From Candidatus Onthocola stercorigallinarum (GTDB taxonomy: Bacteria; Bacillota_I; Bacilli_A; RF39; UBA660): 54,740 nt of DNA. A program made the position numbers and the translations under genes. The stretch's first letter is position 1, and the number at the start of each line of letters is the position of its first letter. The stretch covers positions 1 through 54,740 of the forward strand of contig DVMD01000095.1 in NCBI GenBank assembly GCA_018715145.1, written 5' to 3'. Positions 3,758 through 42,935 of this stretch are shown piece by piece. The notes beneath the pieces are model-generated. The model saw only the letters and a list, made by a program, of their open reading frames with translations. It did no database searches and was not told the origin of the DNA.

Positions 3758-3841
3758 ATGATTATTAGTTATACTGATACCGAAAGAGATTTACTAGCTA
3801 GAATAATGCGAGCTGAGGCTTTATCAGAAGGAAAGTCATAG
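3758..3841 (+). pseudogene. cwlJ: 5' fragment of a cwlJ/sleB-type spore cortex-lytic hydrolase gene, interrupted by the prophage
   Basis: AGGTG RBS, then ATG at 3758. It encodes MIISYTDTERDLLARIMRAEALSEG, then two phage-derived codons (KS) and TAG. DLLARIMRAEA..EG is the conserved N-terminal motif of Hydrolase_2 (CwlJ/SleB catalytic domain) proteins. Confidence 0.8.
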
Positions 3842-3849
3842 TTAGTATG
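3818..3849. other. attL of the prophage (core CAGAAGG at 3825-3831 plus the phage-side half-site CATAGTTAGTATG at 3837-3849)
   Basis: GCTTTATCAGAAGG (3818-3831) matches GCTTTACCAGAAGG (42573-42586) at 13 of 14 positions. Host cwlJ coding sequence lies on the left and phage DNA on the right. Confidence 0.8.
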
Positions 3850-3872
3850 TTTATAAAGATTCTGTTATTAAT

Positions 3873-4199
3873 ATGAAAAGTAAAAGAACTAAAGCAACTG
3901 ATATACCAATGTCAGTAAAAAAGAAAGTATTTGAGCGGGATCATGGTAGATGTGTAGTATGTGGTAATAGTTATAATGTTATGCCCAATGCACATGTGCT
4001 TTCACGAGCACATTCAGGCAAAGGAATAGAAACTAATGTAGTTACCTTATGTACCAATCTAACGCCAAATAAATGCCATTACAAATTTGACAACGGTACT
4101 AAAGAAGAAAGACAATTTATATTAGATAAGATTACTAAATATATGAAATCTATTTATGGGGATGATTGGAATATTGAAGACCAGAAATATAAAAAATAG
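3873..4199 (+). CDS. Small HNH/zinc-finger nuclease-like protein at the extreme left end of the prophage
   Basis: 108 aa with ERDHGRCVVCG ... NAHVLSRAH ... NVVTLC...NKCH (HNH-type beta-beta-alpha-metal signature with Cys pairs). It is the only plus-strand gene at this end, co-directional with the truncated cwlJ fragment and 31 nt downstream of it. Confidence 0.6.
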   Translation: MKSKRTKATDIPMSVKKKVFERDHGRCVVCGNSYNVMPNAHVLSRAHSGKGIETNVVTLCTNLTPNKCHYKFDNGTKEERQFILDKITKYMKSIYGDDWNIEDQKYKK

Positions 4200-4202
4200 C
4201 AT

Positions 4203-4237
4203 AAAAAAAGAACCTAGCCAAAATGACTAGGTTTTTA
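4203..4237. terminator. Bidirectional intrinsic terminator between convergent genes
   Basis: AAAAAAAG-AACCTAG-ccaaaatga-CTAGGTT-TTTTATT: a 7-bp stem flanked by an A-run and a T-run. Confidence 0.6.
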
Positions 4238-5095
4238 TTATTCTTGAAATCCGTACTTCTTAAGAGATTCTAAAGTAATAGGTCCAAAATATCCATCAAC
4301 AGTAGAATCATAGTTGCCTTCGAGTTTTGCTCTTCTTTGAAACTCTTTAATACTAGATTTTATATAAGGGCCATAAAATGGACCTAAAGCCTTTTCACTA
4401 GTGTATTTAGGAAAAGTTTTTAACATAAATTCAGCTATTCTATTTATGTTTGGATGTTCATCGCCATCTTTAAAATAGCCTAAGCCACCAAAGAAATCTT
4501 CTGTTGGTTCTTCGCTAATTTCTTCAGTTGGCATTTCCTTGAAATTGATTCCAGCATTATCTACGATTTCGGTTACAGACTTATCTACATAGAATACATC
4601 TTCAGGTTTTTGTGTGCCTTCTTTAGTTGTAAGAACCCAAAATTCATTACCTCCGACAACTTGCTTAGCCCAACCAGTTCCGCTAAGTTCGCCAAATCCA
4701 GCACAAACATGGTTATGATGTCCTGTAGAATTTGCATCTACCGCTTCGCTAACAACTTTTTGTCCTTGTTTGAAAGCATCTCCGACTTTAAGAACATTAA
4801 ATTCGCTAGCAGATATATGAGCGATTAAGATACTAACAATTTTATCCCCGCTAGGAGTCCTTACTTTATCTGTAGAAGTAATCCAAATATAATTAGAAAC
4901 AGCATCATATTTCCTTACTATTTTACAATCAAATGGTGCTATGAAGTATCCACCACTTCCTGCAGCACCATAAGTTTCGTCTACTGGATAATCTTTTTGA
5001 ATACTTGTAGTATGTCTTTTATGATTTCCTTCATTATAGCCTTGGCTTATTCTCATTTTATTTGCAAAATATTTTGAATATTGCATATTATTCAC
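4238..5095 (-). CDS. Endolysin: N-terminal peptidase-like catalytic domain (M23/LytM-like, tentative) plus C-terminal PG_binding_1 domain
   Basis: 285 aa. The C-terminus (IKEFQRRAKLEGNYDSTVDGYFGPITLESLKKYG) fits the peptidoglycan-binding repeat pattern. The N-terminal part has a His-rich motif, STGHHNHVCAG. The gene lies next to the holin at the prophage end. Confidence 0.7.
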   Translation of the reverse strand: MNNMQYSKYFANKMRISQGYNEGNHKRHTTSIQKDYPVDETYGAAGSGGYFIAPFDCKIVRKYDAVSNYIWITSTDKVRTPSGDKIVSILIAHISASEFNVLKVGDAFKQGQKVVSEAVDANSTGHHNHVCAGFGELSGTGWAKQVVGGNEFWVLTTKEGTQKPEDVFYVDKSVTEIVDNAGINFKEMPTEEISEEPTEDFFGGLGYFKDGDEHPNINRIAEFMLKTFPKYTSEKALGPFYGPYIKSSIKEFQRRAKLEGNYDSTVDGYFGPITLESLKKYGFQE

Positions 5096-5104
5096 TCTCC
5101 TTTA

Positions 5105-5275
5105 TTAACATGTTACTTTATATGGATATTCTGGTATTTTTTCTTTAGTTTCTTTTAATAAAATTGTATTAGGTAAACCTTGATTACCTTGTTTGCTTTT
5201 AAGTTCCTCATATTTACCTTTAATTATTAAAAGCTCTTTGTACTCTTCTAAAGAAATTGTTATTGTTTCTTGCAT
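5105..5275 (-). CDS. Small coiled-coil protein between holin and endolysin (below the ORF-track size cut-off)
   Basis: Hand translation: MQETITISLEEYKELLIIKGKYEELKSKQGNQGLPNTILLKETKEKIPEYPYKVTC (56 aa). The ATG directly abuts the holin stop (TAAATG), and a GGAG lies upstream. Confidence 0.4.
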   Translation of the reverse strand: MQETITISLEEYKELLIIKGKYEELKSKQGNQGLPNTILLKETKEKIPEYPYKVTC

Positions 5276-5539
5276 TTAATTCTCCTTTTTTACTATTTTT
5301 TCTAAATTATGGAATATGTCATAAGCTCCACCAGCCAATATACCACTTAAAGCAATTGCTGTACTAAAGTCTTTAGTTATAATCCATTCTATTATTGCGA
5401 TAATTAAGCCTATAGCGATGTTTTGTAGTGGGATAAGGTTAGTACTTATCCAACTGAATTTCTTTGCTAGAGCTCCCAAAATCCATGTTACAACGATTGT
5501 TACAATTGTTAGAATTTCTGTTAGTTCCATTTCTCTCAC
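5276..5539 (-). CDS. Holin
   Basis: 87 aa with three hydrophobic helices (ILTIVTIVVTWILGAL, LIPLQNIAIGLIIAIIEWII, AIALSGILAGGAY) and a charged C-terminus. It lies in the lysis-cassette position. Confidence 0.7.
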   Translation of the reverse strand: MREMELTEILTIVTIVVTWILGALAKKFSWISTNLIPLQNIAIGLIIAIIEWIITKDFSTAIALSGILAGGAYDIFHNLEKIVKKEN

Positions 5540-7754: not shown

Positions 7755-9197
7755 TTACCATTCGTCAATTATTTCGTAATCTAATATTGGGTTTCCGCTA
7801 GGCAACAAAACTACATCTTTGAATATTACAAAGTTTGGTTGACCTTTTGGTCTTGAATCCGAAGATACTACATTCATCAACTTATCAGTTGCCGTAAATT
7901 CAAATTCGTATATTTTTTGATAATCCCAAGTACCATCATCGGAAATAGGATTTATTAGTTCAACAGATAAACTGTATTTGTTTTCAGTTTCAGAGATAGT
8001 TGGAGTAAGTGTTGTCGCACCATTTGTCCATTCTCCATTTCTTTCCCTAACTCTCCATGATAGTGATAAAGTATTTGAAACGGTATCACTGAAATTTCCT
8101 TTAAAGTAATTACCACTAATATTAACAAACATATCATCAGCGATTTGTGTTGATCTTTTAGTTGTAGCTGAAACAGTTAAATATGTATATGGTATTCTTT
8201 TGAAATATCCACTTTGTGAGCTACTATTTGACTGAAAGCTTTCTGTAGCAGAATATCCTCTACTATCAACAACCGTAAAACTAAAAGCATCATATATATC
8301 AAGTTTTTGCATAATTGTAGTAGCATCGGGATTATGGCTATAAGTTCCAGTGCTAGAACTTATATATAATTGGGATTTTGTGGCACTATTTTTAACTGTA
8401 GAACTTATATTAAACATCGGTTCAGAAAAGTAATCCACTAATACCGGATTTTGTGCAGTTGAGCCAGTTAATTCTACTGTAGTATCGTTATTATCATAGA
8501 AGCTCACATTGATACTTGGTTTACAATCATTATCGTTACACTTAGCGGTAAATGAACATGAACTAGTGCCTATTAATGTACCTCCGCTATATGTTTGACA
8601 AGTTATTGTTCCTTGCCCAGATTTTGAGTTTGGAATTTGTGCATAAAAACTTGTAGGTAACGCCCAACTATAGCTTGTCCCAACTCCCGTTGCTATTTGA
8701 CCACTTAAAATTCCAAAAGAATATGAAAGTGTATGTGTAAACGAGTCAGATGCTTTATTTATTGATATTAGTAAATTACTACCAATTGTTCCTTCTCCTG
8801 CAGTTACACCAGAAGCTCTTGCTATTCGTGATAATTCAGCTTGACCAGTTTGTTCACTCATTATCGTTGTAGTAATTTGACCTCTAACTGAAATATTAAT
8901 TGTTTTAGTACCATCGCTATTATGTGGGACTTTAACTGTTCCAGAAACTAACAATGTATTTGAATTTAATTTTAAAGGTCTATCATTAGAATTTTGTTGA
9001 TAAAATTCTGTTCCATTGATTTTAATATAAAATCTATGTTGATAATCCGTTGTTGTGTAATTGTTAGTTCTCCATCCTCGAAGTTCGGCATATACCATAG
9101 AATAATTTTCGGCGGTATTAACTTCTGTTTCTCGCCAATTCACTTGCCCAACAATATATTGGTTACTTGTTGTTACTTCAAAATATCCATTTTTCAT
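7755..9197 (-). CDS. Tail/host-specificity structural protein (DUF859-like N-terminus, tentative)
   Basis: 480 aa, Ser/Thr/Asn-rich and beta-type in composition. The N-terminus (VGQVNWRETEVNTAENYSMVYAELRGWRTNNY) resembles the DUF859 phage family. It lies within the tail-fibre cluster. Confidence 0.45.
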   Translation of the reverse strand: MKNGYFEVTTSNQYIVGQVNWRETEVNTAENYSMVYAELRGWRTNNYTTTDYQHRFYIKINGTEFYQQNSNDRPLKLNSNTLLVSGTVKVPHNSDGTKTINISVRGQITTTIMSEQTGQAELSRIARASGVTAGEGTIGSNLLISINKASDSFTHTLSYSFGILSGQIATGVGTSYSWALPTSFYAQIPNSKSGQGTITCQTYSGGTLIGTSSCSFTAKCNDNDCKPSINVSFYDNNDTTVELTGSTAQNPVLVDYFSEPMFNISSTVKNSATKSQLYISSSTGTYSHNPDATTIMQKLDIYDAFSFTVVDSRGYSATESFQSNSSSQSGYFKRIPYTYLTVSATTKRSTQIADDMFVNISGNYFKGNFSDTVSNTLSLSWRVRERNGEWTNGATTLTPTISETENKYSLSVELINPISDDGTWDYQKIYEFEFTATDKLMNVVSSDSRPKGQPNFVIFKDVVLLPSGNPILDYEIIDEW

Positions 9198-9199
9198 TT

Positions 9200-11101
9200 T
9201 TAATCATCTCCCATGTAAAAGAAGCCAATTCCTATTCCGTAATTTGGATCATCCGTTATCTCTATACGCCAGTCTCCACCAACATGATTATTTCCAATCA
9301 TTAAATATGTTCTAACTAGCAAATTGGCGGTTCTAACTATTGATTGTAATAAAGTCGAATCATACCCAGCATATAACAATTCAGAATCAACATTCCCAGT
9401 TTTATCCGTTACTGTAATTCCGTCTGTATCTGCATTGAATTTTGTTGGTGAATTTGTTTCGTCAATGTCCAAACCATCATCGCTAAATGTGAAACCTTTA
9501 TCAGTTTTTAAAATCGGTACACCATTTGCTAATGTTTCCTCAATTACATTTATTGATAATTCCGTAGAATTTTGAAGAGTTTGTACAGTATTAGTTAATT
9601 GAGTTACACTTTCGGCGGTAGCTAATCCATTCATTTTATCCAATGTATCTTGATAGTTGTTATTTGCCATTGCTGCATTGTTGTCTATTTGATTTTGTAA
9701 ATCATTAAGAGTCGGGTCAATGTCTTCGGTAAATTTGTACCAATTATAATCATCAAAATTGGTACTATCTGCTTCTGTAAAATCCACATATTGTCCTATA
9801 TAAGCACTAGGTTTTTCACCTTCCGAATAAGAATCATCAGCTGGAGTAAATGTTTGTCCATCTTCAGAATACTTAATATGAAGATATGATGTTTGTCCAT
9901 TTTCACCAGCTACTCCCGGACTTCCGTTTTGTCCATCAGTACCTTTTATTAAGCTCCAAGTATAATCAGTGTTTGATGTTGGTGCAGTAGAACTTGTTGT
10001 ACTTACTACACCCATGTATTTACTATTTTCATTAGGAGTTGTAGTCATTGGATTACCATCAGAATTTATTGAATATCTTATATAGAAATATGAAGATGTT
10101 CCTGCTTCTCCAGGTGGTCCTTGTATACCTTGCTCCCCAGGTTCACCTTGAGGACCTTGTGGTCCAGTATCTCCTGGATCACCAGTAATTTCTTCTTCTG
10201 CAGAATATGTGACAGTTCCATCCACATAAGTTGTCTTATTTCGTCTTAATACAATTTGACCTTCTTGCCTATTCGGAAATGTTGTAGACCACTCATCGGA
10301 AGATCCTTGTATTTTATATTCTGAAGTTATGCTAGCGACTGTATCATCAACTTTACCTTCCAAAGTTTCAACTTTAGTGGTAACTGAACTAACACTTCCT
10401 CTTATGCTTTCTGCAGTTGTTTCCAATGCCACTTTAGTTGCATAATCTGTTTCAACTGTTTTTTTAAATTGATCTAAAACCGCTTTAACATTCATTGCGT
10501 AGGTATCATCGGTATATTTAGTAGCGATTATCCAATCCACTTCATTATATTCGCCACTTGAGCGACTAGCTCGACATCTGTATAAGTCAGCATTATCTTT
10601 AAACCAAATATCCCCGACATCATAAGGCGGTGTTGGAGTAGTAACAAAAACTCTTCTTTTACTATCCGCAGTATCTTGTGCTGCATTTGCCAACGCTAAT
10701 GCTTCTGTTACATCTGAATCAGTCAATTTTAGCCAACTATATATATTGTTTTCTAAAGAAAATCGATAAGCATATCCTGTATCCTTATCGTAGTATAAAT
10801 CTCCTAAATGATTTGCTTTATCTTCTTCTGTTATCCAGTCAATAGCAGGACTATTTTCTAATGTAGGAATACCAGAAAAAAACCAAGTAGAAATGTTTCC
10901 ATCTACCTGGTCTTGTAAATTACTGATATCTTCTAAAACCTCTTTCACATAATTTTCTAAATTAGTATTGGTTTTAGTTAAATTGTCATTAAGAGTAGCT
11001 ATTGCTTTTTTGCTTCGGTTTATCTCTTCTAAATTATATCTTCTTATTAAGTCTTCAGCAGTAACTGCTTTAGTTTTATCATTATAACTTACCATTACCA
11101 A
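9200..11101 (-). CDS. Tail fibre with a collagen-like Gly-X-Y segment
   Basis: 633 aa. It contains GDPGDTGPQGPQGEPGEQGIQGPPGEAG (nt ~10100-10190), followed by two repeats of a YxxI(R/K)YS...DY.W module. Confidence 0.7.
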   Translation of the reverse strand: MVMVSYNDKTKAVTAEDLIRRYNLEEINRSKKAIATLNDNLTKTNTNLENYVKEVLEDISNLQDQVDGNISTWFFSGIPTLENSPAIDWITEEDKANHLGDLYYDKDTGYAYRFSLENNIYSWLKLTDSDVTEALALANAAQDTADSKRRVFVTTPTPPYDVGDIWFKDNADLYRCRASRSSGEYNEVDWIIATKYTDDTYAMNVKAVLDQFKKTVETDYATKVALETTAESIRGSVSSVTTKVETLEGKVDDTVASITSEYKIQGSSDEWSTTFPNRQEGQIVLRRNKTTYVDGTVTYSAEEEITGDPGDTGPQGPQGEPGEQGIQGPPGEAGTSSYFYIRYSINSDGNPMTTTPNENSKYMGVVSTTSSTAPTSNTDYTWSLIKGTDGQNGSPGVAGENGQTSYLHIKYSEDGQTFTPADDSYSEGEKPSAYIGQYVDFTEADSTNFDDYNWYKFTEDIDPTLNDLQNQIDNNAAMANNNYQDTLDKMNGLATAESVTQLTNTVQTLQNSTELSINVIEETLANGVPILKTDKGFTFSDDGLDIDETNSPTKFNADTDGITVTDKTGNVDSELLYAGYDSTLLQSIVRTANLLVRTYLMIGNNHVGGDWRIEITDDPNYGIGIGFFYMGDD

Positions 11102-14100
11102 TACACTCTCCCATCTTTAATAGTAAAACCTAATTCCGTTAAAATTAAAGTTTTCTCATCCGCCGAACTTACATTTTGATTAATGTAATTTATTATTTGC
11201 TCATTATAGTCATCAAAAGAACTATAATAAAGTTTTATGAATATTGCTTTTTGAGGTATAGATAATTTTAAAGAATTAATATAACTGATAGTTGCATCTT
11301 TCTTGTTGTCATTTTTATCTCTTATTTCATCAATTTTATCTTTGTATTCTAGATAATTATCATAATCAGTTATTTGAAGAATAGTTGTATATTTTGCAGG
11401 ATTATCTAATGCATAGTTTATTTCTTCTTTATGTAAGTAATAATCTGATACATTTCCGCCTTGTTCGGTATATTTATTAACTTTATTATAAGTTGAAGAC
11501 ATTTCTAACCCTAAAACCTCTTCTCTCGCTTTATTATAAGAATAATCAACAATAGATTTTATAATGCTAGATTTATCTTCATCACTTAACTTTTCATAAT
11601 CAGAATTATCTAATAAATTCTCAACATTTTCTTCTATTATATTTCCGGATATTTTTTGATATTCTGCTCTTTGTGAACTATCCATAGTTATTTTCTCTCC
11701 ATCACTGTTAATATAATACGGAGCAACTCTTGGCATGATTGTCGCATCACCAGTTTCTTGATACAATCTATATATTTCTTCAGCACTTTCACTAATATTT
11801 TCTGTTGATACATTAGCAGGATTCAAAAACACATTAAATATATTGTTCTTGCCGCCATATTTTTGTATTTCTCTACCCATACTATCAACACTAGGAGATA
11901 ATGTTTTACTTAAGAAAGGTATTTTAGCTTTAACACTATTTATTGAACTTTCCAAAGGTTTTCCATATTCAAAACTTGTTCTTTGAGTTCCATCAATCAT
12001 ATCAGCTATTTGTTTCATAAATGTTGGAATAGCTCGTGCTGGCAAATCAAATATTGCTTCTTGAACACCACTAGCAAGGCCATCGTTATTATTTAAAGCA
12101 GTATTAATACTTTCCATAAAGGATTGTTCTAATAATATGTTACCAGCAGTGTCTAAAGAACTTAATATCGTTTCCAAAGCACTAGCATCTTCATCTTCTT
12201 TTTGAACTATATTAGCCATAATGGAAAGCGGTGCTGCAATAGGTTGAGCCCAGTCATAAGTAAAGGATTTATTACCTATTTTTATTGAATACGAATTAAC
12301 CCCTAAAGTGTTTTTCATAAAATTTTGAACATCTTTATCATCATCACTCTCGCCACTTACTATACCTGCTTTAGCTAGTGCATATCCAGCAACATAAAGC
12401 ATAGTACCAGCAACTGCTTTACCGAGTGACTGAACAAAATCATGTTGCATTTGGGGAGTAAATTGACCAGTTTTAATAGCATTTGAAAGTCTTTTACCTT
12501 TAACTAATGTATTTACTAATCCAGCCGGCGAATAATCGACTATTGCTTTAGTTAAATTGGCAGGAGTTTTGGCAAATGGGATAAGTACATCTCCTAATCC
12601 ATATCCTCTAACATTAACATTGTTTAGCATTTTTCTTACATTTAATACAAATCTAGTATAATTATTGTTGTCTTGCCATGTTCTTGACAATGCTTCTTGA
12701 GTAGCAATATCAATCATATCTTGAGTTACTTCAGTAGTATTATTCAAGACTAATTGATTGTTAATAGAATTGGTAAATGTTGCTTCATAGAAAGTTCTAT
12801 CTCCAGCATCTAGCATAAACGACAATAAACTATCCACTCTATTTAATGCCTTTCCAATAGTAGTATTATTATTAAATGATTTGCCTTCTCCAATTTCAAA
12901 TCTATTTCCTTGAATGTTTCTTGTATTTATTCCTTGCTTAAAATCATTATAACTTTGATAAAAGCCTTCTTTAAATCCTTTAACATAGCTTTGAACATTA
13001 GTTACACCGGTTGTACGATATCCCGTTTTAGATCCTACAACTTTATCTACCATACTAGCAAATAGATCACTAAATGAATTTACTGGTGCAATAATAGCAT
13101 TACCAGCAACATTTCTAACTTGTGTTTTGGGATTGAATAACATAGATATACGCATCCAAGATTTAATACTAGCCCCTCTTTCAGGCGGTAATTTATCAGT
13201 CATAATTTTTTGGATTTTAGCCAGTTCTACTCTTTTATCATAGCCATCAGGCATAGTAGATACTTTTTGCATGATATCCATAATCGCTTCAGTTTCTTGT
13301 GGAGTTAAATCAAAATCTTTTTGATATTTATCTATCCATTTTTTAGTTTTATTTTTAACCATTCTATCATATGCTTCAGATAATTCTGATTGAGCATATT
13401 TAACCATACCTTCAGGTGTCATTCTAGCCATTATATTAAATGCTTGTACTGTTTGACCAGCTTTTGTACCCATATCACGAAGCTTTTTAGCAACAGCCAC
13501 CATACCATCAGAATCACTATTATCTGCATATTGTTTCAATAATATCCAACCTTCAGCAACATCTACTGCTGTTGCTTTTTCCGAATCCTTACTAAACCAA
13601 TTTAGAGTTTCTAATTCACCATTTTCATTTAATCTTGAAAATGCTTCATTTAAACTATCTTCATTTGTAATTTTATCGTAGTAATTAACCTCTTCATTTG
13701 CTAATATAGTATTCTTTTGTGTTTCATTTAACATGTTAGTTTTATTTCTAATATTAGAAGCAAATCTACTTTCTCCATCATTTGCTCTATTTCTATTAAC
13801 ATTAGGTAAGATTGGCGTTGTATTAGCATCTTCTGGTGTTAATTGTGATATTTCTAATGGATTTAGTATATTGTTTTGATTATTATGCATATTATTTAAT
13901 GGTAATGGTGCAATTTGACTTTGAGAAGAATTTGTGCTATTATTGTTATATGAAACAGGTTGTTCTACAAACCGACTCGCTGATTGATTTTCATTCAGAA
14001 GACCGGTCGGAACAACCTGTTTTTGTATGACTTCATCTAACGAATAAATTCTTTCTAGTCTAAAATGTTTTTCTCCATCTTGTCTTAAAACAGTATCAAA

Positions 14101-15867: not shown

Positions 15868-15868
15868 T

Positions 15869-29761: not shown

Positions 29762-29762
29762 T

Positions 29763-31889: not shown

Positions 31890-32107
31890 TTCTTCAACCT
31901 CGACTTCATTTCATGTTTAAATTTTTCTTTTTCATTTTTAAATATCCAGTGACCACACCAATCACAGATAGTTTTCACTTGGCTATGAAATAAATATTGT
32001 TTTCTGCCACAATGTTCACATTGTCTTTGATATTTTTCTCTAAAATCCATTTCATCATTGTAATCCCGTATTTTCATAAACCTTATCTTTTTCTCTCTCG
32101 TGTTCAT
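31886..32107 (-). CDS. Small zinc-ribbon protein
   Basis: 73 aa with CEHCGRK...CDWCGH. Confidence 0.4.
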   Translation of the reverse strand: MNTREKKIRFMKIRDYNDEMDFREKYQRQCEHCGRKQYLFHSQVKTICDWCGHWIFKNEKEKFKHEMKSRLKK

Positions 32108-33105: not shown

Positions 33106-33113
33106 ACGCTCTC

Positions 33114-33587: not shown

Positions 33588-33599
33588 TATCTATCCTTT

Positions 33600-34323: not shown

Positions 34324-34329
34324 TTTTCA

Positions 34330-34461
34330 TCACCTTCCTATATCATAATCTTCAATACATTGTTCGCAGACTTCGCCAATTCCACCATTAATCATACCTT
34401 CAGTATCGTACAACTCATCTGTTTCTTCGCCACATAGTGGACATATTATTGTTTCTTCCAT
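34330..34461 (-). CDS. Small zinc-ribbon protein (43 aa, below the track cut-off)
   Basis: Hand translation: MEETIICPLCGEETDELYDTEGMINGGIGEVCEQCIEDYDIGR, with CPLC...CEQC pairs. Confidence 0.35.
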   Translation of the reverse strand: MEETIICPLCGEETDELYDTEGMINGGIGEVCEQCIEDYDIGR

Positions 34462-34464
34462 AAC

Positions 34465-35061
34465 TTACTCCTTTACTGGAAATCCAATAGGAACGCCAGA
34501 GTCAGTATATCCAGCCACTTCTAACATTTCCTCAAATTCTTCTGTTAAATCATATATTCTTCCTGGCTTACCATGAGGTAAATGTACCAAATATAATTTT
34601 TGAGGTCTATCATTAATCAAGTATTCTACTGCATCGGCATACATACTTGTCTGTTTATAACATTTTTCTCTGTTCTTTGGAGTAGCTACCGCATATGTTT
34701 TAAAGTCAAATATAGCCTTTTCTTCAAATAATTCTTTATTTTGATTAAATAGTCTTACAAATTCATAAAATTCTTCTGTGAAGCCTTCTATTCCATCTTC
34801 TAGCCACTCTTGTATTTCTTTATGAATTAATGTACCTTTATCTCTTGCATAATCTAAAGTATCTTTTGAAATATTCGGATTATCATAGGTACCATCATCG
34901 AGTATTTGTGTAACACTAGGAACAATTTTGTTATCCACTCGATATGTATGCCAATCAGAATCAAAAGAAATATCTGTCATAAAATCATCATAACCAGTTA
35001 ATAAATCTATTGTTCCAGCATACTTGTCTGTATTAACTGCTTTTTCACATAATATTTTCAT
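34465..35061 (-). CDS. PD-(D/E)XK-type recombination exonuclease
   Basis: SVTQIL ... KGTLIHKEIQ ... AIFDFKT matches the PD-(D/E)XK pattern. It is paired with an annealing-protein gene. Confidence 0.55.
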   Translation of the reverse strand: MKILCEKAVNTDKYAGTIDLLTGYDDFMTDISFDSDWHTYRVDNKIVPSVTQILDDGTYDNPNISKDTLDYARDKGTLIHKEIQEWLEDGIEGFTEEFYEFVRLFNQNKELFEEKAIFDFKTYAVATPKNREKCYKQTSMYADAVEYLINDRPQKLYLVHLPHGKPGRIYDLTEEFEEMLEVAGYTDSGVPIGFPVKE

Positions 35062-35618
35062 TTATGACTTTTCCTTGCAATTACTTCTTCAGCTGTTGCA
35101 TAAGACATATCCTCAAGTTTTTTTAACTTATAATACATTAACATATCTGGGATTTTATCTTCACTTACTAGTTCTTTAATCTTTTTTATTTGTTCCGGTT
35201 CAATTAACTTTTTTGCTTCTTCTTCTGGTAAGTCTTCACCCGCATAAATGTATAATCCTAAACCATGTCTTGCCACTGCTTTTGTAAGGCTTCTTTGAAT
35301 TGTTTTATTTACATCAAAACTAGTTATATTTTCTAATAAAATGGATTTGTTTTTATAATCCATAACTGGCAGTTCTTCGATATGTTCAATACCATTTACA
35401 ATAACCCCAGTCTTTACCCAACAAGTCTTTCCATCAGTAAAATAATTTACCGGTCCTTTTTCAGTCTCTCTTTCGTAAATAACATAATTAGCATCTGGAA
35501 ATTTCTTTTTTATTTCTCCCCAAGCCCAAGCCCACGAAAGATAACTAAGATTATTTTTCTTTTCTACTTTATCTTGAACATTGATATTATTTAGTTCAAC
35601 AAAATAATTTTCTGCCAT
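35058..35618 (-). CDS. Rad52-like single-strand annealing protein (Sak/DUF1071 family)
   Basis: NNLSYLSWAWAWGEIKKKFPDANY ... RSLTKAVARHGLGLYIYAGEDLP is the characteristic Sak/DUF1071 pattern. Confidence 0.7.
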   Translation of the reverse strand: MAENYFVELNNINVQDKVEKKNNLSYLSWAWAWGEIKKKFPDANYVIYERETEKGPVNYFTDGKTCWVKTGVIVNGIEHIEELPVMDYKNKSILLENITSFDVNKTIQRSLTKAVARHGLGLYIYAGEDLPEEEAKKLIEPEQIKKIKELVSEDKIPDMLMYYKLKKLEDMSYATAEEVIARKSHK

Positions 35619-36161
35619 TTATTCTTTCTCCTTTACGATTTTCACTTTGCAGCCAAAATGTTCACATAGTTCTGTCATAGTCATTTCTATAACTTCAGGT
35701 TCTTTTCTTTCGAATACTGTTTCTAATTTAATTGGTCTTTCTACTTTGACAATGTCATTGTCAGATTTGCCCTCTTTGTCTTTTAAATCATCGGTTAGAC
35801 CATATATGCTTAAAGTTCTTCCTCGCAATGCACCATTATGAAACAGCGATTTACATCCTTCCCTATCAGTTACAATATCACCTTCTTGTAAGTCTGATTT
35901 TGTGAATTTGGATGTGTCTACTAATTCAATCATATCCATTGAAAAGAACCAATATGGTCCGTCACTATCACCAGACCAATCTTTTAATTTAATATTATAG
36001 TTACAAATTTCATCTATTGTTGCAGTTTTGCCACATAAATGCTTCATGTCTTCTATAAAGCGAGGTATACAATTAATACTTTCAAAACAATCTTTTCCAA
36101 ATTCTTTTTCCATTTGTTCCCAACTTTTTATTCTTACTCTGTCTCCAACTTTAAATATCAT
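35619..36161 (-). CDS. Hypothetical protein
   Basis: 180 aa ORF in the early operon. Confidence 0.3.
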   Translation of the reverse strand: MIFKVGDRVRIKSWEQMEKEFGKDCFESINCIPRFIEDMKHLCGKTATIDEICNYNIKLKDWSGDSDGPYWFFSMDMIELVDTSKFTKSDLQEGDIVTDREGCKSLFHNGALRGRTLSIYGLTDDLKDKEGKSDNDIVKVERPIKLETVFERKEPEVIEMTMTELCEHFGCKVKIVKEKE

Positions 36162-36164
36162 AAT

Positions 36165-36596
36165 CTAATTCTCCTTCACTTTCTTTATTATTTTACTAGT
36201 AACAACACTACTCTTTGACCCTACTTTTTGTTTTCCCGGAGTCTTGCCCTCGGGTACTTTAACTTTTACATAATGATCAGATTTTAAATCAGCAATTTCA
36301 TCTAATAATTTTTGATTGTCCGATTGAACTATCGTTGCTAATTTATAAGCATAATCGTATAGCTTTTGATATTTTTCATCTAATTTAATTAATTGTTCTT
36401 CTTTAAATCTGTTTTCCGTTTCTAATTCCTTGATAGTCAAATTTAAATTGTGAATATCGTTATGCAGATTATCAATTTCACACAAGTGTTCAAAACCACT
36501 CCCGATTTTTTCCTGTACCATTAATGCGATGTTATTTGCTTCAATCTCAAATATGTCTTTCATGTGTTGTATTTTTTTCTCTTTCAACTTAAACAT
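36165..36596 (-). CDS. Coiled-coil protein
   Basis: 143 aa with heptad repeats. Confidence 0.3.
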   Translation of the reverse strand: MFKLKEKKIQHMKDIFEIEANNIALMVQEKIGSGFEHLCEIDNLHNDIHNLNLTIKELETENRFKEEQLIKLDEKYQKLYDYAYKLATIVQSDNQKLLDEIADLKSDHYVKVKVPEGKTPGKQKVGSKSSVVTSKIIKKVKEN

Positions 36597-36927
36597 TTTC
36601 TTCTTCTCTCCTTAAAACAAATTGTGATACCATCTTTCCCGAATACGAACATCTCACTTTTGTTTTAGAACAATCAATAACCCCTTTTTTTAATAACTCA
36701 GTTAGTCTTGGAGCTGCTATGTTTCTTTCATCGGTATAAGCATAACCCCGTTTGTACATTTCAACTGCAATCTCTTTTGCCGTTAGAGGCTTGTCCAATT
36801 CTTTCATAATCTTAAGGATTTGCCTATATCTCTTTTGCTTATCTACTGTTTCATAAGACTCTCGTCTTGTTTCATATGTAGGTATTACACCAGGCCTAAT
36901 TTCTTCAAACATCGATAGTTGCATCAT
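36589..36927 (-). CDS. Winged-helix DNA-binding protein
   Basis: RYRQILKIMKELDKPLTAKEIAVEMYKRGY...RLTELLKKGVI is a wHTH-like pattern. Confidence 0.4.
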   Translation of the reverse strand: MMQLSMFEEIRPGVIPTYETRRESYETVDKQKRYRQILKIMKELDKPLTAKEIAVEMYKRGYAYTDERNIAAPRLTELLKKGVIDCSKTKVRCSYSGKMVSQFVLRREEENV

Positions 36928-37466
36928 ATACCCTCGGCTATAAACGATTTTGCTTTTTCTTTCGATGGTGGATTAAATATAAATTCAATTCTAGTCTTTT
37001 CTCTTTCGTCTTCCGTATGATCGTGTATCCACCAAAGTAATTTTTTATATCTTTCCTGAAACTCCTCGTCTGGCATCGCAAACAATTCTTTTCTAGTTAG
37101 CTCTTTTTTAAACCACTTTCTTGTTTCTCGAATAACATAATCAACCCTGCTACATTTTCCAAAATGTTCATCTTCTTCTTCATGTGAATTAAATCCCTTG
37201 TGACATCTTGGACAAAATATTACTGATTTAGTAAAATCTAATTTTTCATTTTTTGGTGTTAAACCTCGGATAATTCTTGATAACAAAGGTGGCGTCTTCG
37301 AGTATAAATCTTCAGCCATTAATTCTTTAAGATTTCTTTTTACATCTTCTAAATCATATACTTGTAATTCATTAAACCAAGCATTTATAACATTACTATC
37401 TACCTCAAAATGTGGATAATTAAGATTAATATAATTTAGTAGCTCAGTTACTTCATCTCTATTCAC
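36924..37466 (-). CDS. Replicative helicase loader (G39P-like, tentative)
   Basis: The N-terminus (VTELLNYINLNYPHFEVDSNVINAWFNELQVYDLEDVKRNLKEL) resembles the loader/inhibitor family of phage SPP1 G40P helicase. It lies downstream of the replication organiser. Confidence 0.45.
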   Translation of the reverse strand: MNRDEVTELLNYINLNYPHFEVDSNVINAWFNELQVYDLEDVKRNLKELMAEDLYSKTPPLLSRIIRGLTPKNEKLDFTKSVIFCPRCHKGFNSHEEEDEHFGKCSRVDYVIRETRKWFKKELTRKELFAMPDEEFQERYKKLLWWIHDHTEDEREKTRIEFIFNPPSKEKAKSFIAEGI

Positions 37467-38163
37467 TTTTACTTCTTATCCTTTCCATTTCTTTATCAAG
37501 AAATTCTCTAGTTTTATCTTTTTTACTTTGATTTTTTTTAAACCAATTTTCTCTGAATGATTTTCTAAGCACTAAATTAAAATTAGTATATTTGTTTTTA
37601 TTGTTATTACTTTCTACATATTCATCTAATAATTTAATTTGTTCATCTAACCTTTCTTTGCCATAATCTTCACAAAGTTTCTGATATTCTTTATCAGTTA
37701 ATTTTATTCTCTTATAATCTCCATAATTTTTTTTGGATTCTTTTTTTTGCGTACTAAAAATATTATTTATATTATCCTTATTCTCAGTATTTATTATATT
37801 AGTATTTATATATGTGTCATTTACTGACGCGTCACTAGATGACTCAGAGTTATTTATTGACTCGTCACTAGGTGACTCACACTTTTCTTTTAACACATAT
37901 ATATAATCTGTTTCTTTATTGTTTGTCGCTTTTATTAATTCTAAATATCCAGCATCTTTTAATCTCTTTATTTTGGAATTAATATTTCTTCTGTTACAAC
38001 CTAATTCTGTTCCTAAATAAGACTGATTAATTTTCCAACCATCAGGGAGTGAATATAGATAAATTAATAATCTATAATCTCCGTCACTTATATCATTTGC
38101 TCTAATAACCGAATTGGGTATTTGCGAATATTTATTTCTAATTTCACTTTTTAATATTGCCAT
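37459..38163 (-). CDS. Replication initiator / replisome organiser with an N-terminal wHTH domain
   Basis: YSQIPNSVIRANDISDGDYRLLIYLYSLPDGWKINQSYLGTELGCNRRNINSKIKRLKDAGYLE is a DnaD/phage-Rep type N-terminal domain. It is the first large gene of the early leftward operon. Confidence 0.55.
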   Translation of the reverse strand: MAILKSEIRNKYSQIPNSVIRANDISDGDYRLLIYLYSLPDGWKINQSYLGTELGCNRRNINSKIKRLKDAGYLELIKATNNKETDYIYVLKEKCESPSDESINNSESSSDASVNDTYINTNIINTENKDNINNIFSTQKKESKKNYGDYKRIKLTDKEYQKLCEDYGKERLDEQIKLLDEYVESNNNKNKYTNFNLVLRKSFRENWFKKNQSKKDKTREFLDKEMERIRSKSE

Positions 38164-38254: not shown

Positions 38255-38395
38255 TTATTTTGTTTGTGCTATTTGAACTGCAGATTCAGTAGCACTTTTT
38301 GTTTGTTCTAAACCATTAGCAAAAGCTAATACTAGAAATACAATACTCGCATAGAAAAATACCAATGGTAAATATTTATTTACTACTTTTTTCAT
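38255..38395 (-). CDS. Small hydrophobic peptide (46 aa)
   Basis: Hand translation: MKKVVNKYLPLVFFYASIVFLVLAFANGLEQTKSATESAVQIAQTK. The RBS is GGAAAGGAGAAG. Confidence 0.35.
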   Translation of the reverse strand: MKKVVNKYLPLVFFYASIVFLVLAFANGLEQTKSATESAVQIAQTK

Positions 38396-38510
38396 TTTCT
38401 TCTCCTTTCCGTGTTATTTCGATTTCAACACCTAATTTTTCAGCATACATCGTATATAAAAGTCTTATTATATGATCTATCTGCTCTTCCGTAGGTTTTG
38501 TTTTATCCAT
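38376..38510 (-). CDS. Small ORF (44 aa)
   Basis: Hand translation: MDKTKPTEEQIDHIIRLLYTMYAEKLGVEIEITRKGEENEKSSK. A GGAG lies upstream. Confidence 0.25.
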   Translation of the reverse strand: MDKTKPTEEQIDHIIRLLYTMYAEKLGVEIEITRKGEENEKSSK

Positions 38511-38582
38511 AAAAGTTCATCTCCTTATTTAAATTTTATGTTTCATTTTGTCGAAACTTGTGGTTGATTGTTTTTTTTCTTA

Positions 38583-39235: not shown

Positions 39236-39493
39236 CTATTCTTCTTTTATTTCTAAATTGTTTATGTTGCTATTAGTTACATTGATTTCCACAAAAAAAT
39301 CTGCTAATTTACAATTTAATATATCAGCAATTTGTTGTAAAGTTTCAACTTTTACTTTTTGCGGATTAACTTCATAGTCGCAATAAGTTGCACGTGAAAC
39401 TCTTAATATTTCTGCTAATTGTTCTTGCGAATATCCTGCCCTTGCTCGATAAGAACGCAAGTTATTAGAAACATATTTTAACTTATCTTTCAT
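39236..39493 (-). CDS. Cro-like XRE-family HTH regulator
   Basis: LRSYRARAGYSQEQLAEILRVSRATYCDYE is an XRE-type HTH. It is the first gene of the leftward early operon, divergent from the repressor. Confidence 0.8.
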   Translation of the reverse strand: MKDKLKYVSNNLRSYRARAGYSQEQLAEILRVSRATYCDYEVNPQKVKVETLQQIADILNCKLADFFVEINVTNSNINNLEIKEE

Positions 39494-39514
39494 AATTACC
39501 TCCTAACTACCTAC

Positions 39515-39543
39515 ATTATAGTTGCTATAAGCAACGTTGTCAA
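39515..39543 (-). promoter_or_regulatory. Leftward early promoter with an operator palindrome in its spacer
   Basis: The minus strand reads TTGACA (39543-39538), a 17-nt spacer, then TATAAT (39520-39515). The spacer contains the palindrome GTTGCTATAAGCAAC (39521-39535). Confidence 0.7.
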
Positions 39544-39572
39544 GTATCTTTTTGCTAAAAGTTACTTTTTAC

Positions 39573-39601
39573 TTTACATTTTGCAACTTTTGAATTATAA
39601 T
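39573..39601 (+). promoter_or_regulatory. Rightward (repressor-side) promoter
   Basis: TTTACA (39573-39578), a 17-nt spacer, then TATAAT (39596-39601), followed by an AGGAGG RBS. Confidence 0.6.
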
Positions 39602-39627
39602 TTTTAAAAAGGAGGAAATAATGTTTT

Positions 39628-39978
39628 ATGAATTTTTTATCTACAAATATTAAATTTTTAAGGCAAAATTCTGGACTAACACAAGAGGATTTAGCAAAAA
39701 TAGTTGGAAAATCGAGAGTGCTTGTAAGTCAATGGGAATCCGATGATAGAGAAATCACTACTGAAGATATTGTAAAATTATCAGATTATTTTAATCTGCC
39801 TATGGATGCACTTGTTGGAAAAGATTTAAGAATTGAAAAAAACAACTTTGATGAGTTGGATATACTATTTGACAAAAACAAAGATATTTTAACAGAATCA
39901 GATAAAAATATAATGAAAGCTATTATAACAGAAAGAAGAAAACAAATAGACAAAGAATTAGGTGAAGAAAATGAGTAG
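39628..39978 (+). CDS. CI/ImmR-like XRE-family repressor
   Basis: LRQNSGLTQEDLAKIVGKSRVLVSQWES is an XRE-type HTH. It is divergent from the Cro-like gene and followed by an ImmA-like protease. Confidence 0.8.
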   Translation: MNFLSTNIKFLRQNSGLTQEDLAKIVGKSRVLVSQWESDDREITTEDIVKLSDYFNLPMDALVGKDLRIEKNNFDELDILFDKNKDILTESDKNIMKAIITERRKQIDKELGEENE

Positions 39979-40294
39979 GATTAAAAGTTTTGCTACACAA
40001 TTAGGATGTGTTATAGCAACTCTATTAATGCTTTCCCCGCTGGCAATTATAATAAGAAGTGAATTTTATAGCACAAAAGAAATTATAATATTACTAATTG
40101 TTTCTATTTCATATGATGTATATATGTTTCAAACATTATTGACAGATGATGCTATAAAAAAAGAAAAAGAACATTACTATAATTTTGTAAAAAATGCTGA
40201 TAAAAAGCTTAATTTAAAATTAACTGACAAAGAGAAATATGAGCATTTACAAAATTATATTGAGAATTTCTTTGAAAAAAATACAAAAAAATAA
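39971..40294 (+). CDS. Small membrane protein in the lysogeny operon
   Basis: The start is moved to the ATG at 39971 (AGGTGA RBS). There are two TM helices (LGCVIATLLMLSPLAIII, IIILLIVSISYDVYMF). Confidence 0.45.
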   Translation: MSRIKSFATQLGCVIATLLMLSPLAIIIRSEFYSTKEIIILLIVSISYDVYMFQTLLTDDAIKKEKEHYYNFVKNADKKLNLKLTDKEKYEHLQNYIENFFEKNTKK

Positions 40295-40312
40295 AAGAAA
40301 GGATATGAGTTA

Positions 40313-40621
40313 ATGATTGAGCAATTACTTAAAGGGGGAATTGGTCAACAAGATATTTTAAATTATTATAATGCAACAATAACTTATATTGAAATGCCTT
40401 TAAATATTAGAGGATGTGTCCATTATTATAAAGGAATATATGATATATTGATAAATAAAAGTTTAAGTTATTATAAACGGAAAAAAACATTATTACACGA
40501 ATTGGCTCATATTGAATTAAACCAATTGTGTCAATACGATAAAGACTTATTTGCCTTTCATATTAACAAATATGAGGATGAAGCAAGTTTATATATTAAG
40601 AAAATTTTGGAGGAACTATGA
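40313..40621 (+). CDS. ImmA/IrrE-family zinc metalloprotease (short form)
   Basis: The HEXXH motif sits in LLHELAHIELNQ. It lies downstream of the XRE repressor, as in ImmR/ImmA modules. Confidence 0.65.
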   Translation: MIEQLLKGGIGQQDILNYYNATITYIEMPLNIRGCVHYYKGIYDILINKSLSYYKRKKTLLHELAHIELNQLCQYDKDLFAFHINKYEDEASLYIKKILEEL

Positions 40622-41034
40622 GAAAAAATAATAGAGCTATAATTATACTAACAATTATAATGATTATTATTTTGGTTATAAATATAATGGATGCTCAAAA
40701 TATATGTAACTATTACATTAAAGATTCATCATTTAATTGCATTATAAAGAATGCGTTAGGCTTAACAGATATATTTTATTTTATTGGTAAAAATTTATAC
40801 ATAATAATTTATATAATAATATTGTTATTTATTTTTAAGAAAAACAAAAATAAAATAAAACATAGGAAAGTACAGCACAAGGAAAAAGCAACTATCGCAA
40901 ATTATAAAAGTCAAAATTCATTAAAAAAAGAATACATAGATTCTAACTATTCGATAAAAGAAATTGGATTATTTATTTTTATAATCTGTATGATAATAGC
41001 ATTTATTTTGCTGATATTTCTATTCAGCAAATAA
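40618..41034 (+). CDS. Membrane protein in the lysogeny operon
   Basis: 138 aa with three hydrophobic helices and a GGAGGA RBS. Its start overlaps the ImmA stop (ATGA). Confidence 0.45.
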   Translation: MRKNNRAIIILTIIMIIILVINIMDAQNICNYYIKDSSFNCIIKNALGLTDIFYFIGKNLYIIIYIIILLFIFKKNKNKIKHRKVQHKEKATIANYKSQNSLKKEYIDSNYSIKEIGLFIFIICMIIAFILLIFLFSK

Positions 41035-41169
41035 AAAAGAGCCAGTACTGCGAATACTGACTCAAATGGATCTTATACAATCAACCACGATTAAATAAGG
41101 AATCCTCTTTAATTTTAACATAAAAGGGCTTCCTTATCAATAAATTTTTAAAGAAAAGGAAGTGTAAAA

Positions 41170-42552
41170 ATGAATAAAGAAATATATGTGGCAATTTATA
41201 TAAGAGTATCAACTACACATCAAGTTGAGGAAGGTTTTTCTCTTGATGCTCAAGAAAATAAATTAAGACAAATATGTGAATTAAATGGATACAAGATATA
41301 TAAAATATATGCTGACAAAGGAATAAGCGGTAAGGACACTATTCATAGACCAGCATTCCAACAAATGATGGAAGATATGGAGACAGGATTATTTTCTAAA
41401 ATACTAGTCATGAAATTAGATAGAATATCTAGGTCAGTTGCAGATTTAGAAAATATTATTAAGCAATTACAAAAGCATAACTGCGGATTTGAAAGCGCTT
41501 CTGAAAAAATTGATACAACTTCTTCAATGGGATTAATGTTTATACGACTGTTGGGTGTATTTGCTCAATTCGAAAGAGAAAGAATTGCCGAAAGAATTAG
41601 AGATGCATTTGATGAAAAAATCAAACAAGGTGGTGCAGTAACCAGATCATTACCTATGGGATATAAAATTGGAACAGATGATAAAGGCAAGAAAATCGTA
41701 ATCAAAGACATTGAGAAAGAAGAAATAGTTAAAGATATGTTTGATACTTATGAACGGACTAATTCGTTACAAAAAACCGCGGATTATTTAAATGAAAAGT
41801 ATCCTGATAAATTAAATAAATATATGGCTACCGGACAAGGAATAAGTAGAGCATTAGATAGCAAAATGTATTATGGATATTATCGTGGTAACGACAGTTA
41901 CTGCGAACCGTATGTCAGTAAAGAAAGATGGGAACGATTAAACGAAATTAAAAAATCTAAAAATATTAAAGGTTATAAACACACATTCATTTTTAGTGGT
42001 ATACTAAAATCATCTTGTGGACATTATTTAGTAGGTCATTTCTGCCACGGAGAAAATGCTTATCGATGTAAAATTTATTCAACTAACAAAAAATGTTCAT
42101 GCAACTCTGTGCGTGAAAAATATGTTGAAAAGCAGTTCCTAGATAAACTTAACGATTCATTAATAGAATATATTGATAAATACACTATCAAGATATCAAA
42201 TTCTAAATATATTGATAATACCAAAAAAATTAAATCTTTAGAAGAAAAAAAGCAAAAAATAATTAGTTCATTTATTAACGGGTGGATTAATGAAGATGCC
42301 GCAAAATCAGAAATTAATCAAATAGAAGTTTCTATAAAAGAACTTAAAAAAGACAATAAAATAGAAGATATAGAGGCATTAAAAAAGATTATAAATTCAA
42401 ATTGGAGAGAAAAATATAATCACTTTACAAAAGAAGAAAAACAAGCTTTTATAAGAAACTTAAATATAGACTATATCTATATAGATCATGAAAAATATAA
42501 TCAAGGATGGAGGGATAGAAAACCAGAATTTTTAACTATTTATTTCAAATAG
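41170..42552 (+). CDS. Large serine recombinase (phage integrase)
   Basis: 460 aa. It has a resolvase-type N-terminus with the catalytic Ser context AIYIRVSTTHQ and LDRISRS, a recombinase domain, a Cys-rich zinc-ribbon region (SCGHYLVGHFCHGENAYRCKIYSTNKKCSC) and a C-terminal coiled coil. It ends 28 nt before the att core. Confidence 0.95.
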   Translation: MNKEIYVAIYIRVSTTHQVEEGFSLDAQENKLRQICELNGYKIYKIYADKGISGKDTIHRPAFQQMMEDMETGLFSKILVMKLDRISRSVADLENIIKQLQKHNCGFESASEKIDTTSSMGLMFIRLLGVFAQFERERIAERIRDAFDEKIKQGGAVTRSLPMGYKIGTDDKGKKIVIKDIEKEEIVKDMFDTYERTNSLQKTADYLNEKYPDKLNKYMATGQGISRALDSKMYYGYYRGNDSYCEPYVSKERWERLNEIKKSKNIKGYKHTFIFSGILKSSCGHYLVGHFCHGENAYRCKIYSTNKKCSCNSVREKYVEKQFLDKLNDSLIEYIDKYTIKISNSKYIDNTKKIKSLEEKKQKIISSFINGWINEDAAKSEINQIEVSIKELKKDNKIEDIEALKKIINSNWREKYNHFTKEEKQAFIRNLNIDYIYIDHEKYNQGWRDRKPEFLTIYFK

Positions 42553-42560
42553 TTTATTAG

Positions 42561-42586
42561 CATATTAAATATGCTTTACCAGAAGG
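42561..42586. other. attR of the prophage (phage-side half-site CATATTAAATATG at 42561-42573 plus core CAGAAGG at 42580-42586)
   Basis: See attL. Phage DNA lies on the left, and host cwlJ coding sequence resumes at 42587. Confidence 0.8.
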
Positions 42587-42935
42587 CGATCTTGGAATGC
42601 TTATGGTTGGTAATGTTGTTGTAAATAGAGTTTTGGCAGATTGTCTAACTTTTAAAAATATTGATAGTGTCTATGATGCCATTTATCAACCAAATCAATT
42701 TGTAGGAACTAATTCTTCATTATTTAATGCATCTCCAACAACTACAGAAAGAAGGCTAGCTGAACGAATTTTAAGAGGAGAATATTATTATCCTGCAACA
42801 AATGCTTTATGGTTTTATGCCCCATCTGGTAACAGTAGTTGCAAAACAACATGGTATGATCAAGTTCTCGCAGGTAGATATAAAAGTCATTGTTTTTATA
42901 ATCCCGATCCAGGAGTATGTCAAAAAATACATTAA
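42587..42935 (+). pseudogene. cwlJ: 3' fragment of the cwlJ/sleB-type spore cortex-lytic hydrolase gene
   Basis: The in-frame sequence (G)DLGMLMVGNVVVNRVLADCLTFKNIDSVYDAIYQPNQFVGT...ALWFYAP...YYNPDPG follows the Hydrolase_2 catalytic-domain pattern (VG.VV.NRV ... IYQP.QF). It has no RBS or start codon of its own at the junction. Confidence 0.8.

Follow-up and report, generated by a model that had tools for sequence, protein, structure and literature searches.

We analysed a 54,740-nt stretch of DNA (contig DVMD01000095.1, hereafter the window), with a G+C content of 29%, in which a gene for a cell wall hydrolase of the CwlJ type is split into two fragments by a prophage that encodes a large serine recombinase. 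An earlier reading of the same stretch, referred to here as the original prediction, had proposed that precise excision of this element would rebuild the gene in frame. The features of the split gene and its junctions are as follows.

3758-3841, forward strand: open reading frame (ORF) with the 5' fragment of the cwlJ-type gene; ATG at 3758, codons 1-25 at 3758-3831
3818-3831, forward strand: core of the left attachment site (attL), GCTTTATCAGAAGG; predicted crossover at GA 3827-3828
3832-42586: siphovirus-like prophage of 38,755 bp, to all appearance complete; missing from the empty sites L103-L107
41170-42552, forward strand: large serine recombinase (integrase), 460 aa, ending 34 nt before the right junction, at the end of the right attachment site (attR)
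42573-42586, forward strand: attR core, GCTTTACCAGAAGG; predicted crossover at GA 42582-42583
42587-42935, forward strand: cwlJ-type gene, 3' fragment with codons 26-140 and the stop codon

The 5' ORF, preceded by the ribosome-binding site (RBS) AGGTGA at 3746-3751, encodes MIISYTDTERDLLARIMRAEALSEG and then runs into phage DNA, which contributes a K, an S and a stop codon. This fragment carries the RAEA/SEG motif with a Glu that aligns to the active-site region of SleB. The frame is picked up again at 42587 as DLGMLMVGNVVVNRVLADC (DLGMLMVGN...) and ends at the stop codon 42933-42935. Both junctions carry CAGAAGG (3825-3831 and 42580-42586), as part of the GCTTTAYCAGAAGG repeat that is identical at 13 of 14 positions between 3818-3831 and 42573-42586 and stands in the same codon phase in the two copies. 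When 3832-42586 (38,755 bp) was removed in silico, joining 3758-3831 to 42587-42935, the product was a 423-nt ORF of 140 aa, in agreement with the roughly 140 aa that had been claimed; the coordinates, repeats and codon phase given in the original prediction all held when we read the sequence again. The insertion is clean and site-specific, and lies inside codon 24 of the cwlJ-type gene. Since it parts the first 25 codons, with the conserved Glu motif, from the remaining Hydrolase_2 domain, the lysogen is unable to make the full enzyme, and the sole in-frame start of the 3' fragment (M29, at 42597) leads to a 112-aa product that lacks the N-terminal Glu motif.

The joined 140-aa protein scored 66.5 bits on Pfam Hydrolase_2 (PF07486), for which the cutoff is 27, with profile positions 2-100 of 100 covering residues 24-129. 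This was its sole Pfam match, so that the protein is of a single domain, without the signal peptide or peptidoglycan-binding domain of the SleB type. Its alignment with CwlJ of Bacillus subtilis, a reference sequence confirmed by exact look-up ('cell wall hydrolase CwlJ [Bacillus subtilis]'), was colinear across 139 of the 140 residues and had one 2-residue gap (40% identity, 59% positives, E 3e-43) and included the C-terminal KSHCFY motif, as expected from the earlier claim of a single-domain, CwlJ-like Hydrolase_2 enzyme. The NCBIfam SleB equivalog model gave 41.7 bits of the 236.5 needed and the structures of the SleB catalytic domain (4F55 and 4FET) matched weakly, the joined protein being much nearer to CwlJ than to SleB. 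In the alignment with these two structures, E20 of RAEA was paired with the GES-motif Glu. A catalytic Glu is common to SleB and CwlJ (PMC12331253), and we infer from the alignment that E20 would be this residue. We consider it likely that the gene is a CwlJ-type sporulation gene.

The exact 140-aa joined protein was found in public data. Five metagenome contigs of the same species, from five samples (L103-L107 in our numbering of loci), carry the gene uninterrupted and encode a protein identical to the join, which answers the search for an uninterrupted allele in relatives that the original prediction had suggested. Between the join and the gene of L103 there were 10 nucleotide differences, all of them synonymous. 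These contigs matched the window at 3-2787 (99.8%), 3010-3831 (97.9%) and 42573-43570 (98%), and the two arms that meet at the gene overlapped by exactly the 14-nt repeat. An empty-site pattern of the same kind was observed in L011, L012 and L006, and homologues numbered at least 4,289, mostly of 140 aa. At the level of sequence, the comparison shows that the reverse reaction would restore the allele present in uninfected members of the same species, and we regard the structure of the gene split and its reversibility as practically certain.

The contig L001 is a further empty site, which looked imperfect because of a divergent 21-nt patch; the exact-allele empty sites are those of L103-L107. 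The patch (L001 155-175, window 3811-3831) is preceded by 154 nt of 100% identity and followed by sequence of 98% identity; 10 of its 21 bases differ, exactly across the integrase binding and crossover region, and RSEAIGEG replaces RAEALSEG. It looks like a localized mosaic or an escape allele of attB. A further difference between the alleles is a 222-nt stretch of the window (2788-3009), overlapping an ORF with a Bro-N domain (2621-2974), which is missing from the otherwise 98-99.8% identical L103-L106; L107 begins downstream of it.

A large serine recombinase had been placed at the attR end, and this is what the gene at 41170-42552 encodes: the Pfam domains Resolvase (1e-39), Recombinase (1.8e-10) and Zn_ribbon_recom (6e-07) were found in it, together with a match to PHROG 95, integrase (3e-104). 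The best matches among integrases of cultured phages were those of phi105 and rho14 at 31% identity, no cultured phage being close. Scans of viral contigs with the integrase and with the reconstructed phage attachment site (attP) returned no match, and relatives of the integrase were located through the protein database and contig look-ups. These relatives, with 77-99% identity, were found in two contexts. In attR forms the integrase is followed by a Hydrolase_2 fragment of 110-112 aa that belongs to differing host alleles (L101 and L102, integrase 99% identical to that of the window; L095, L097 and L100, 77% identical). In attP forms (L091-L094, L096, L098 and L099) it is followed by the phage's own left-end genes, the phage being free or circular; in L091, sequence like 41029-42593 of the window is joined directly to sequence like 3820-4198. 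All six lysogen alleles found retain an unbroken 3' reading frame. Judged by these contexts, related phages are shown to insert at this codon in further host species, and to exist in circular or free form as well.

The position of the crossover was placed at GA 3827-3828 / 42582-42583 because of the centre of the attP dyad and the origin of the bases that flank GA. In three attP variants (CCA-GA-AGG, CCA-GA-TGG and CCT-GA-GGG) the dyad symmetry was best at GA, with 14-16 of 22 positions, and the same dinucleotide is found in attB, attL and attR, the symmetry of attB itself being weak. Three bases to the left of GA there is a T/C difference, at which attL agrees with attB and attR with the phage, and the base to the right of GA is that of the host in attR forms, with deviations at this base in some attP forms. 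Strand exchange is thus predicted at the GA of codon 24 (GAA).

A second hydrolase gene of the same neighbourhood is split recurrently in related species. It lies two to four genes 3' of the cwlJ-type gene and is intact in the window.

45563-46936, reverse strand: Amidase_3 gene with five LysM domains, intact; CATATAATA at 46936-46928, just 5' of its RBS
Split-amidase loci in relatives: L007 11246-15808; L008 11249-18279; L033 10468-18101; L064 10456-20068; and many of L012-L090

Among 65 related species genomes in which the amidase lies beside the hydrolase, serine-recombinase elements split the amidase gene in 38. The gene was intact in 24 genomes, started at residue 81-97 in 36 and near residue 200 in 2, and could not be classified in 3. 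A start at residue 81-97 falls in the middle of the catalytic domain, and a serine recombinase gene was usually found 4-3000 bp away. Where both halves were in reach, the inserts measured 3.2, 6.2 and 8.2 kb. We read the insertion junctions by eye, as an automatic search for core repeats had picked AT-rich noise, and two in-frame joins were obtained, NAGG/GDGAE with the core GAGGT at about residue 92 and KSGD/SLW with the core GGRGATA at about residue 210; in L008 both sites are occupied. Regulated excision would account more readily than repeated knockouts for a conserved gene that is interrupted this often and yet has open, joinable halves.

The two hydrolase genes also have an upstream element in common, and a similar one precedes a small ORF of the prophage.

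3714-3741, forward strand: promoter-like element of the cwlJ-type gene; AC at 3714-3715, 17-nt spacer, CATAAAATA at 3733-3741
38376-38571, reverse strand: 44-aa ORF (38510-38376) and its upstream region, with CATAAAATT at 38540-38532 and the 12-mer ACAATCAACCAC at 38571-38560

Apart from a CATA-type element, the 72 distinct orthologous upstream regions of the cwlJ-type gene were poorly conserved. In 60 of them CATAnnnTA was found with a constant spacing to the RBS, CATA was present in 69, and an upstream C, at a -35-like position, lay 17 nt from the element in 36 and 18 nt from it in 17. AC-N17-CATAnnnTA is the consensus of B. subtilis sigma-K and in part that of sigma-E, and the element of the cwlJ-type gene resembles such a mother-cell promoter, by a consensus that comes from B. 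subtilis. The amidase gene has the same CATAnnnTA element in 18 of its 19 distinct upstream regions, and the arrangement with an RBS was met in about 2% of some 620 other ORFs at the same loci. Since the cro-like gene of the phage uses a perfect TTGACA-17-TATAAT (39543-39515), the housekeeping promoter is here of another type than CATA; the cro-like and CI-like genes both have canonical sigma-A promoters.

Within the window, CATAnnnT[AT] followed by an RBS and a start codon was found at the two hydrolase genes and the 44-aa ORF only; upstream of the integrase, CATAAAAGG departs from CATAnnnTA. The window has exactly two copies of the 12-mer ACAATCAACCAC, one 5' of the integrase (41077-41088, forward strand) and one 5' of the 44-aa ORF. 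Both are kept in L091, L092, L101 and L102, other loci totalling 1.3 Mb do not contain the 12-mer, and the integrase and the small protein may be regulated in common through it. As a -35 element the 12-mer was rejected, its spacing to the CATA element varying between 19, 22 and 30 nt. Between the 12-mer and the start of the integrase there is an inverted repeat, TAAGGAA...N25...TTCCTTA (41100-41145), around AACATAAAAG, which is kept even in the group with the 77% identical integrase. This repeat could serve to control the integrase, either as an operator or as a structure in RNA.

The prophage claimed in the original prediction was confirmed in its gene content, with portal, large terminase, major head, tail, holin and endolysin, replication and immunity genes all present.

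3873-4199, forward strand: HNH endonuclease of 108 aa, left end of the prophage; PHROG 7370, E 6e-20
4238-5539, reverse strand: lysis cassette; endolysin 4238-5095, holin 5276-5539
7755-19401, reverse strand: tail module; tail proteins 7755-9197 and 9200-11101, 1590-aa ORF 11095-15867
19836-25491, reverse strand: module for head and packaging, with major head protein (19836-20801), portal (21776-23488) and large terminase (24121-25491)
37459-38163, reverse strand: DnaD-like replication initiator; the early/replication block (about 26026-38163) starts here
39236-40621: immunity region; cro-like helix-turn-helix protein 39236-39493 (reverse), CI-like helix-turn-helix protein 39628-39978 (forward), ImmA-like metalloprotease 40313-40621 (forward)

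The 1590-aa ORF is probably the tape measure, by its size and position and without a family match. In the circular forms (L091-L094) the HNH endonuclease gene lies directly 3' of the integrase and attP. As the 108-aa ORF just past attL, it had been considered as a directionality factor under the host promoter, which was ruled out by its identity as an endonuclease.

The relatives of the cwlJ-type gene belong to uncultured gut metagenome-assembled genomes labelled Bacilli, Tenericutes, Mycoplasma sp. CAG:472, Clostridium sp. CAG:609, Candidatus Caccenecus and Candidatus Ventrenecus, and the host is an uncultured low-G+C gut lineage of Bacilli, by these names probably of the order RF39. A peptidoglycan wall and spore formation have been predicted for RF39 (Field et al., PMC10868615), whose reduced genomes are reported to contain genes for the activation of sigma-E and sigma-G (PMC10868615). 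We compared 97 neighbouring ORFs of five long contigs with NCBIfam for sporulation genes, which was uninformative, the LysM and adenylation families dominating the result. Across the 80 species-representative genome loci retained, the identity of the cwlJ-type gene was 68-98% (Hyd2 tblastn). The gene downstream of it in the window is the following.

42988-43569, forward strand: host gene of 193 aa, PF06541 (CmpB-like), not gerQ

In L103-L107 the hydrolase has the same neighbours: a 139-aa gene and an NTPase precede it, and after it come the CmpB-like gene, a VirD4-like gene of 440 aa, an AraC-type gene and then the amidase. In the closest relatives a type IV secretion cluster lies beside or upstream of the hydrolase gene, with VirB4-like, VirD4-like, TraC-like and SpoIID-domain proteins. 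When compared with L007-L010 and L103, positions 1-2413 and 43701-45561 of the window were found to hold conjugative (type IV secretion) remnants, those on the left side being homologues of a 752-761-aa protein and of a 139-aa protein, and between the CmpB-like gene and the amidase stand two inserted genes, the 440-aa VirD4-like one and that of the AraC-type regulator. Because more distant species that lack the secretion cluster keep the hydrolase-amidase pair adjacent, the pair is chromosomal core, and the hydrolase as a cargo gene of the adjacent conjugative cluster was ruled out on the same ground.

In its architecture the element is like known intervening prophages, and new here are the host lineage and the target gene. 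The comparison drawn in the original prediction with Bacillus elements stood as regards the gene split and the CwlJ type, with the qualification that the host is not Bacillus or Clostridium but an uncultured gut lineage of Bacilli. In B. subtilis, SPbeta, with its integrase SprA and directionality factor SprB, is an active full-size phage in the mother-cell-type gene spsM, of which empty-site strains exist (PMC4191935, PMC5499854). As in the window, its large serine recombinase gene adjoins an att site and precise excision restores the ORF in frame. In contrast, the target of SPbeta is a polysaccharide synthesis gene and not a cwlJ-type cortex hydrolase gene, SPbeta has about 134 kb as compared with the 38.8 kb of the unrelated phage in its uncultured host, and the expression of SprB has been shown to depend on sporulation, whereas the directionality factor is here a lead only. 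The skin element in sigK (SpoIVCA in B. subtilis; CD1231 and CD1234 in Clostridioides difficile) and the inducible PhiS63 in sigK of Clostridium perfringens (PMC3442830, PMC5025042) are likewise comparable. Skin is a serine-recombinase element that splits a gene, in its case a late mother-cell gene, and leaves by site-specific recombination, and PhiS63 shows that such an element can remain a fully functional phage. Skin is mostly defective, near-fixed and in the gene of a master regulator, whereas the element described here is sporadic and the gene it splits is that of an effector enzyme, which would be packed into the spore.

Sporulation genes are also split by the recombinase-bearing elements gin (gerE, Bacillus cereus), vfbin (spoVFB), vrin (spoVR) and yin (yabG, Clostridium botulinum) (PMC5595907, PMC4191935, PMC10747680), which the 3-8-kb amidase elements of the relatives resemble more than they resemble phages. 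None of these lies in cwlJ or in an Amidase_3-LysM gene, and all are from cultured Bacillus, Geobacillus or Clostridium. The original prediction knew of no intervening element with cwlJ as its established target, and the literature open to our search likewise contained no case. In Listeria monocytogenes, phage phi10403S in comK undergoes active lysogeny, in which precise excision does not necessarily lead to virions. That prophage is a reversible switch of a host gene, as the present one would be, and differs in the type of integrase, the trigger, the biology of the host and the lack of a link to sporulation.

On the sequence comparisons, the gene split is real and reversible and is of the skin/SPbeta class. 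In the mechanism that we propose, a functional temperate phage would use its large serine integrase for recombination between attP, dyad-symmetric and about 50 bp long, and the attB inside the cwlJ-type gene. This gene would encode a CwlJ-like germination enzyme expressed in the mother cell from a promoter of the sigma-K/E type. In the terminally differentiating mother cell, the integrase and a directionality factor would excise the prophage, as in SPbeta/spsM and skin/sigK, upon which CwlJ would be made and loaded onto the spore, the forespore chromosome retaining the prophage. The one candidate for the directionality factor would be the 44-aa ORF (38376-38510), and this is only a lead. Circumstantial support for developmental excision comes from the conserved mother-cell-type promoter element and the recurrently split neighbouring hydrolase gene. 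We judge the case for an excision timed to sporulation to be evenly balanced. A wider form of this proposal, in which programmed DNA rearrangement in late sporulation would extend across the lineage, with the cwlJ-type and amidase genes as landing pads for elements that are excised in the mother cell, appears rather doubtful to us, as does its reach from 3-kb minimal elements to full phages at three or more in-frame sites in over half of the species.

Several observations weigh against sporulation-timed excision. One concerns the promoters: CATAAAATA and CATATAATA hold near-consensus sigma-A -10 hexamers, which makes the sigma assignment insecure, and one CATA-type match in about 60 phage genes corresponds to chance expectation. 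No directionality factor was identified by family match, the 44-aa ORF having no informative one. The prophage is sporadic, most database alleles being intact, and appears fully lytic-competent, hence no domestication is evident. B. subtilis cwlJ is dispensable when SleB is present, single mutants germinating through SleB, and a plain knockout could therefore be tolerated. The gene 3' of the split gene is CmpB-like, hence there is no cwlJ-gerQ operon, and gerQ, the partner of CwlJ in B. subtilis, is reported as reduced or absent in RF39 (PMC10868615); the linkage to gerQ is not universal among cwlJ genes, as B. cereus cwlJ1 forms a cwlJ-gerQ operon like that of B. subtilis and B. cereus cwlJ2 is monocistronic. 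Finally, sporulation of the host is itself a genome-based prediction. The main alternative is ordinary lysogeny, in which a conserved stretch of the gene would serve as a reliable attB, the gene would be off in all cells while the prophage is resident and restored only in the few that are cured of the phage or switch to lytic growth, and the loss would be tolerated, the enzyme being redundant or conditionally needed. The complete prophage with its classic cro/CI/ImmA immunity region and sigma-A promoters, the circular or free forms that are common in metagenomes, the minority of alleles that are lysogens and the integrase, at which no sporulation-type promoter was demonstrable, all agree with such an account. 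We hold plain lysogeny with a tolerated knockout to be a serious possibility, nearly as likely as sporulation-timed excision. Against it, a gene conserved to this degree over 80 loci should be costly to lose, the 3' frame is intact in six of six lysogen alleles, and the 10 differences from the intact allele are all synonymous. Over half of the related species have an interruption in the amidase gene, which carries the same upstream element, and yet its halves are open and joinable in frame; this is hard to reconcile with simple knockouts. The serine-recombinase elements of spsM, sigK, gerE, spoVFB and spoVR have been reported to excise in sporulation.

The significance of the insertion would be another one if the gene were not a sporulation gene and the host did not sporulate, the Hydrolase_2 protein then being a vegetative wall enzyme or one associated with conjugative elements and the insertion lacking developmental meaning. 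The secretion cluster that adjoins the gene in the closest relatives, the remnants of it on both sides in the window, the reduced genomes of the host lineage and the score far under the cutoff of the NCBIfam SleB model are in line with this explanation, which we nevertheless consider improbable, as the cwlJ-type/amidase pair is adjacent in many distant species without secretion genes, the full-length similarity to CwlJ extends to the KSHCFY motif, the promoter element is distinctive with a conserved C that is not sigma-A-like, and activation genes for sigma-E and sigma-G are reported in RF39, for which sporulation is predicted. An assembly artefact, that is, a chimeric contig in which phage and host reads were joined at a short shared repeat, can be set aside almost entirely. 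The repeat at the junctions does have 14 nt only, but the attR junction recurs in independent assemblies (L101 and L102; L095, L097 and L100), both junctions fall at exactly the same nucleotide of the gene, and the attP and attB partners exist separately.

The element provides a new serine-integrase system, consisting of an integrase with its natural attB, attP, attL and attR in several variants, and systems of this kind serve genome engineering. If excision is developmental, the germination enzyme gene cwlJ would be added to the known split targets sigK, spsM, spoVFB, spoVR, gerE and yabG, and the phenomenon would reach beyond cultured Bacillus and Clostridium, into a gut lineage that is uncultured and whose sporulation is a prediction. 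The recurrently split amidase is maybe the more informative lead to how these bacteria coexist with mobile elements. Were the lineage-wide pattern true, the ability to germinate and the lysis of the mother cell would both be gated by phages, and sporulation of these 'Tenericutes-like' bacteria would thereby be proved indirectly.

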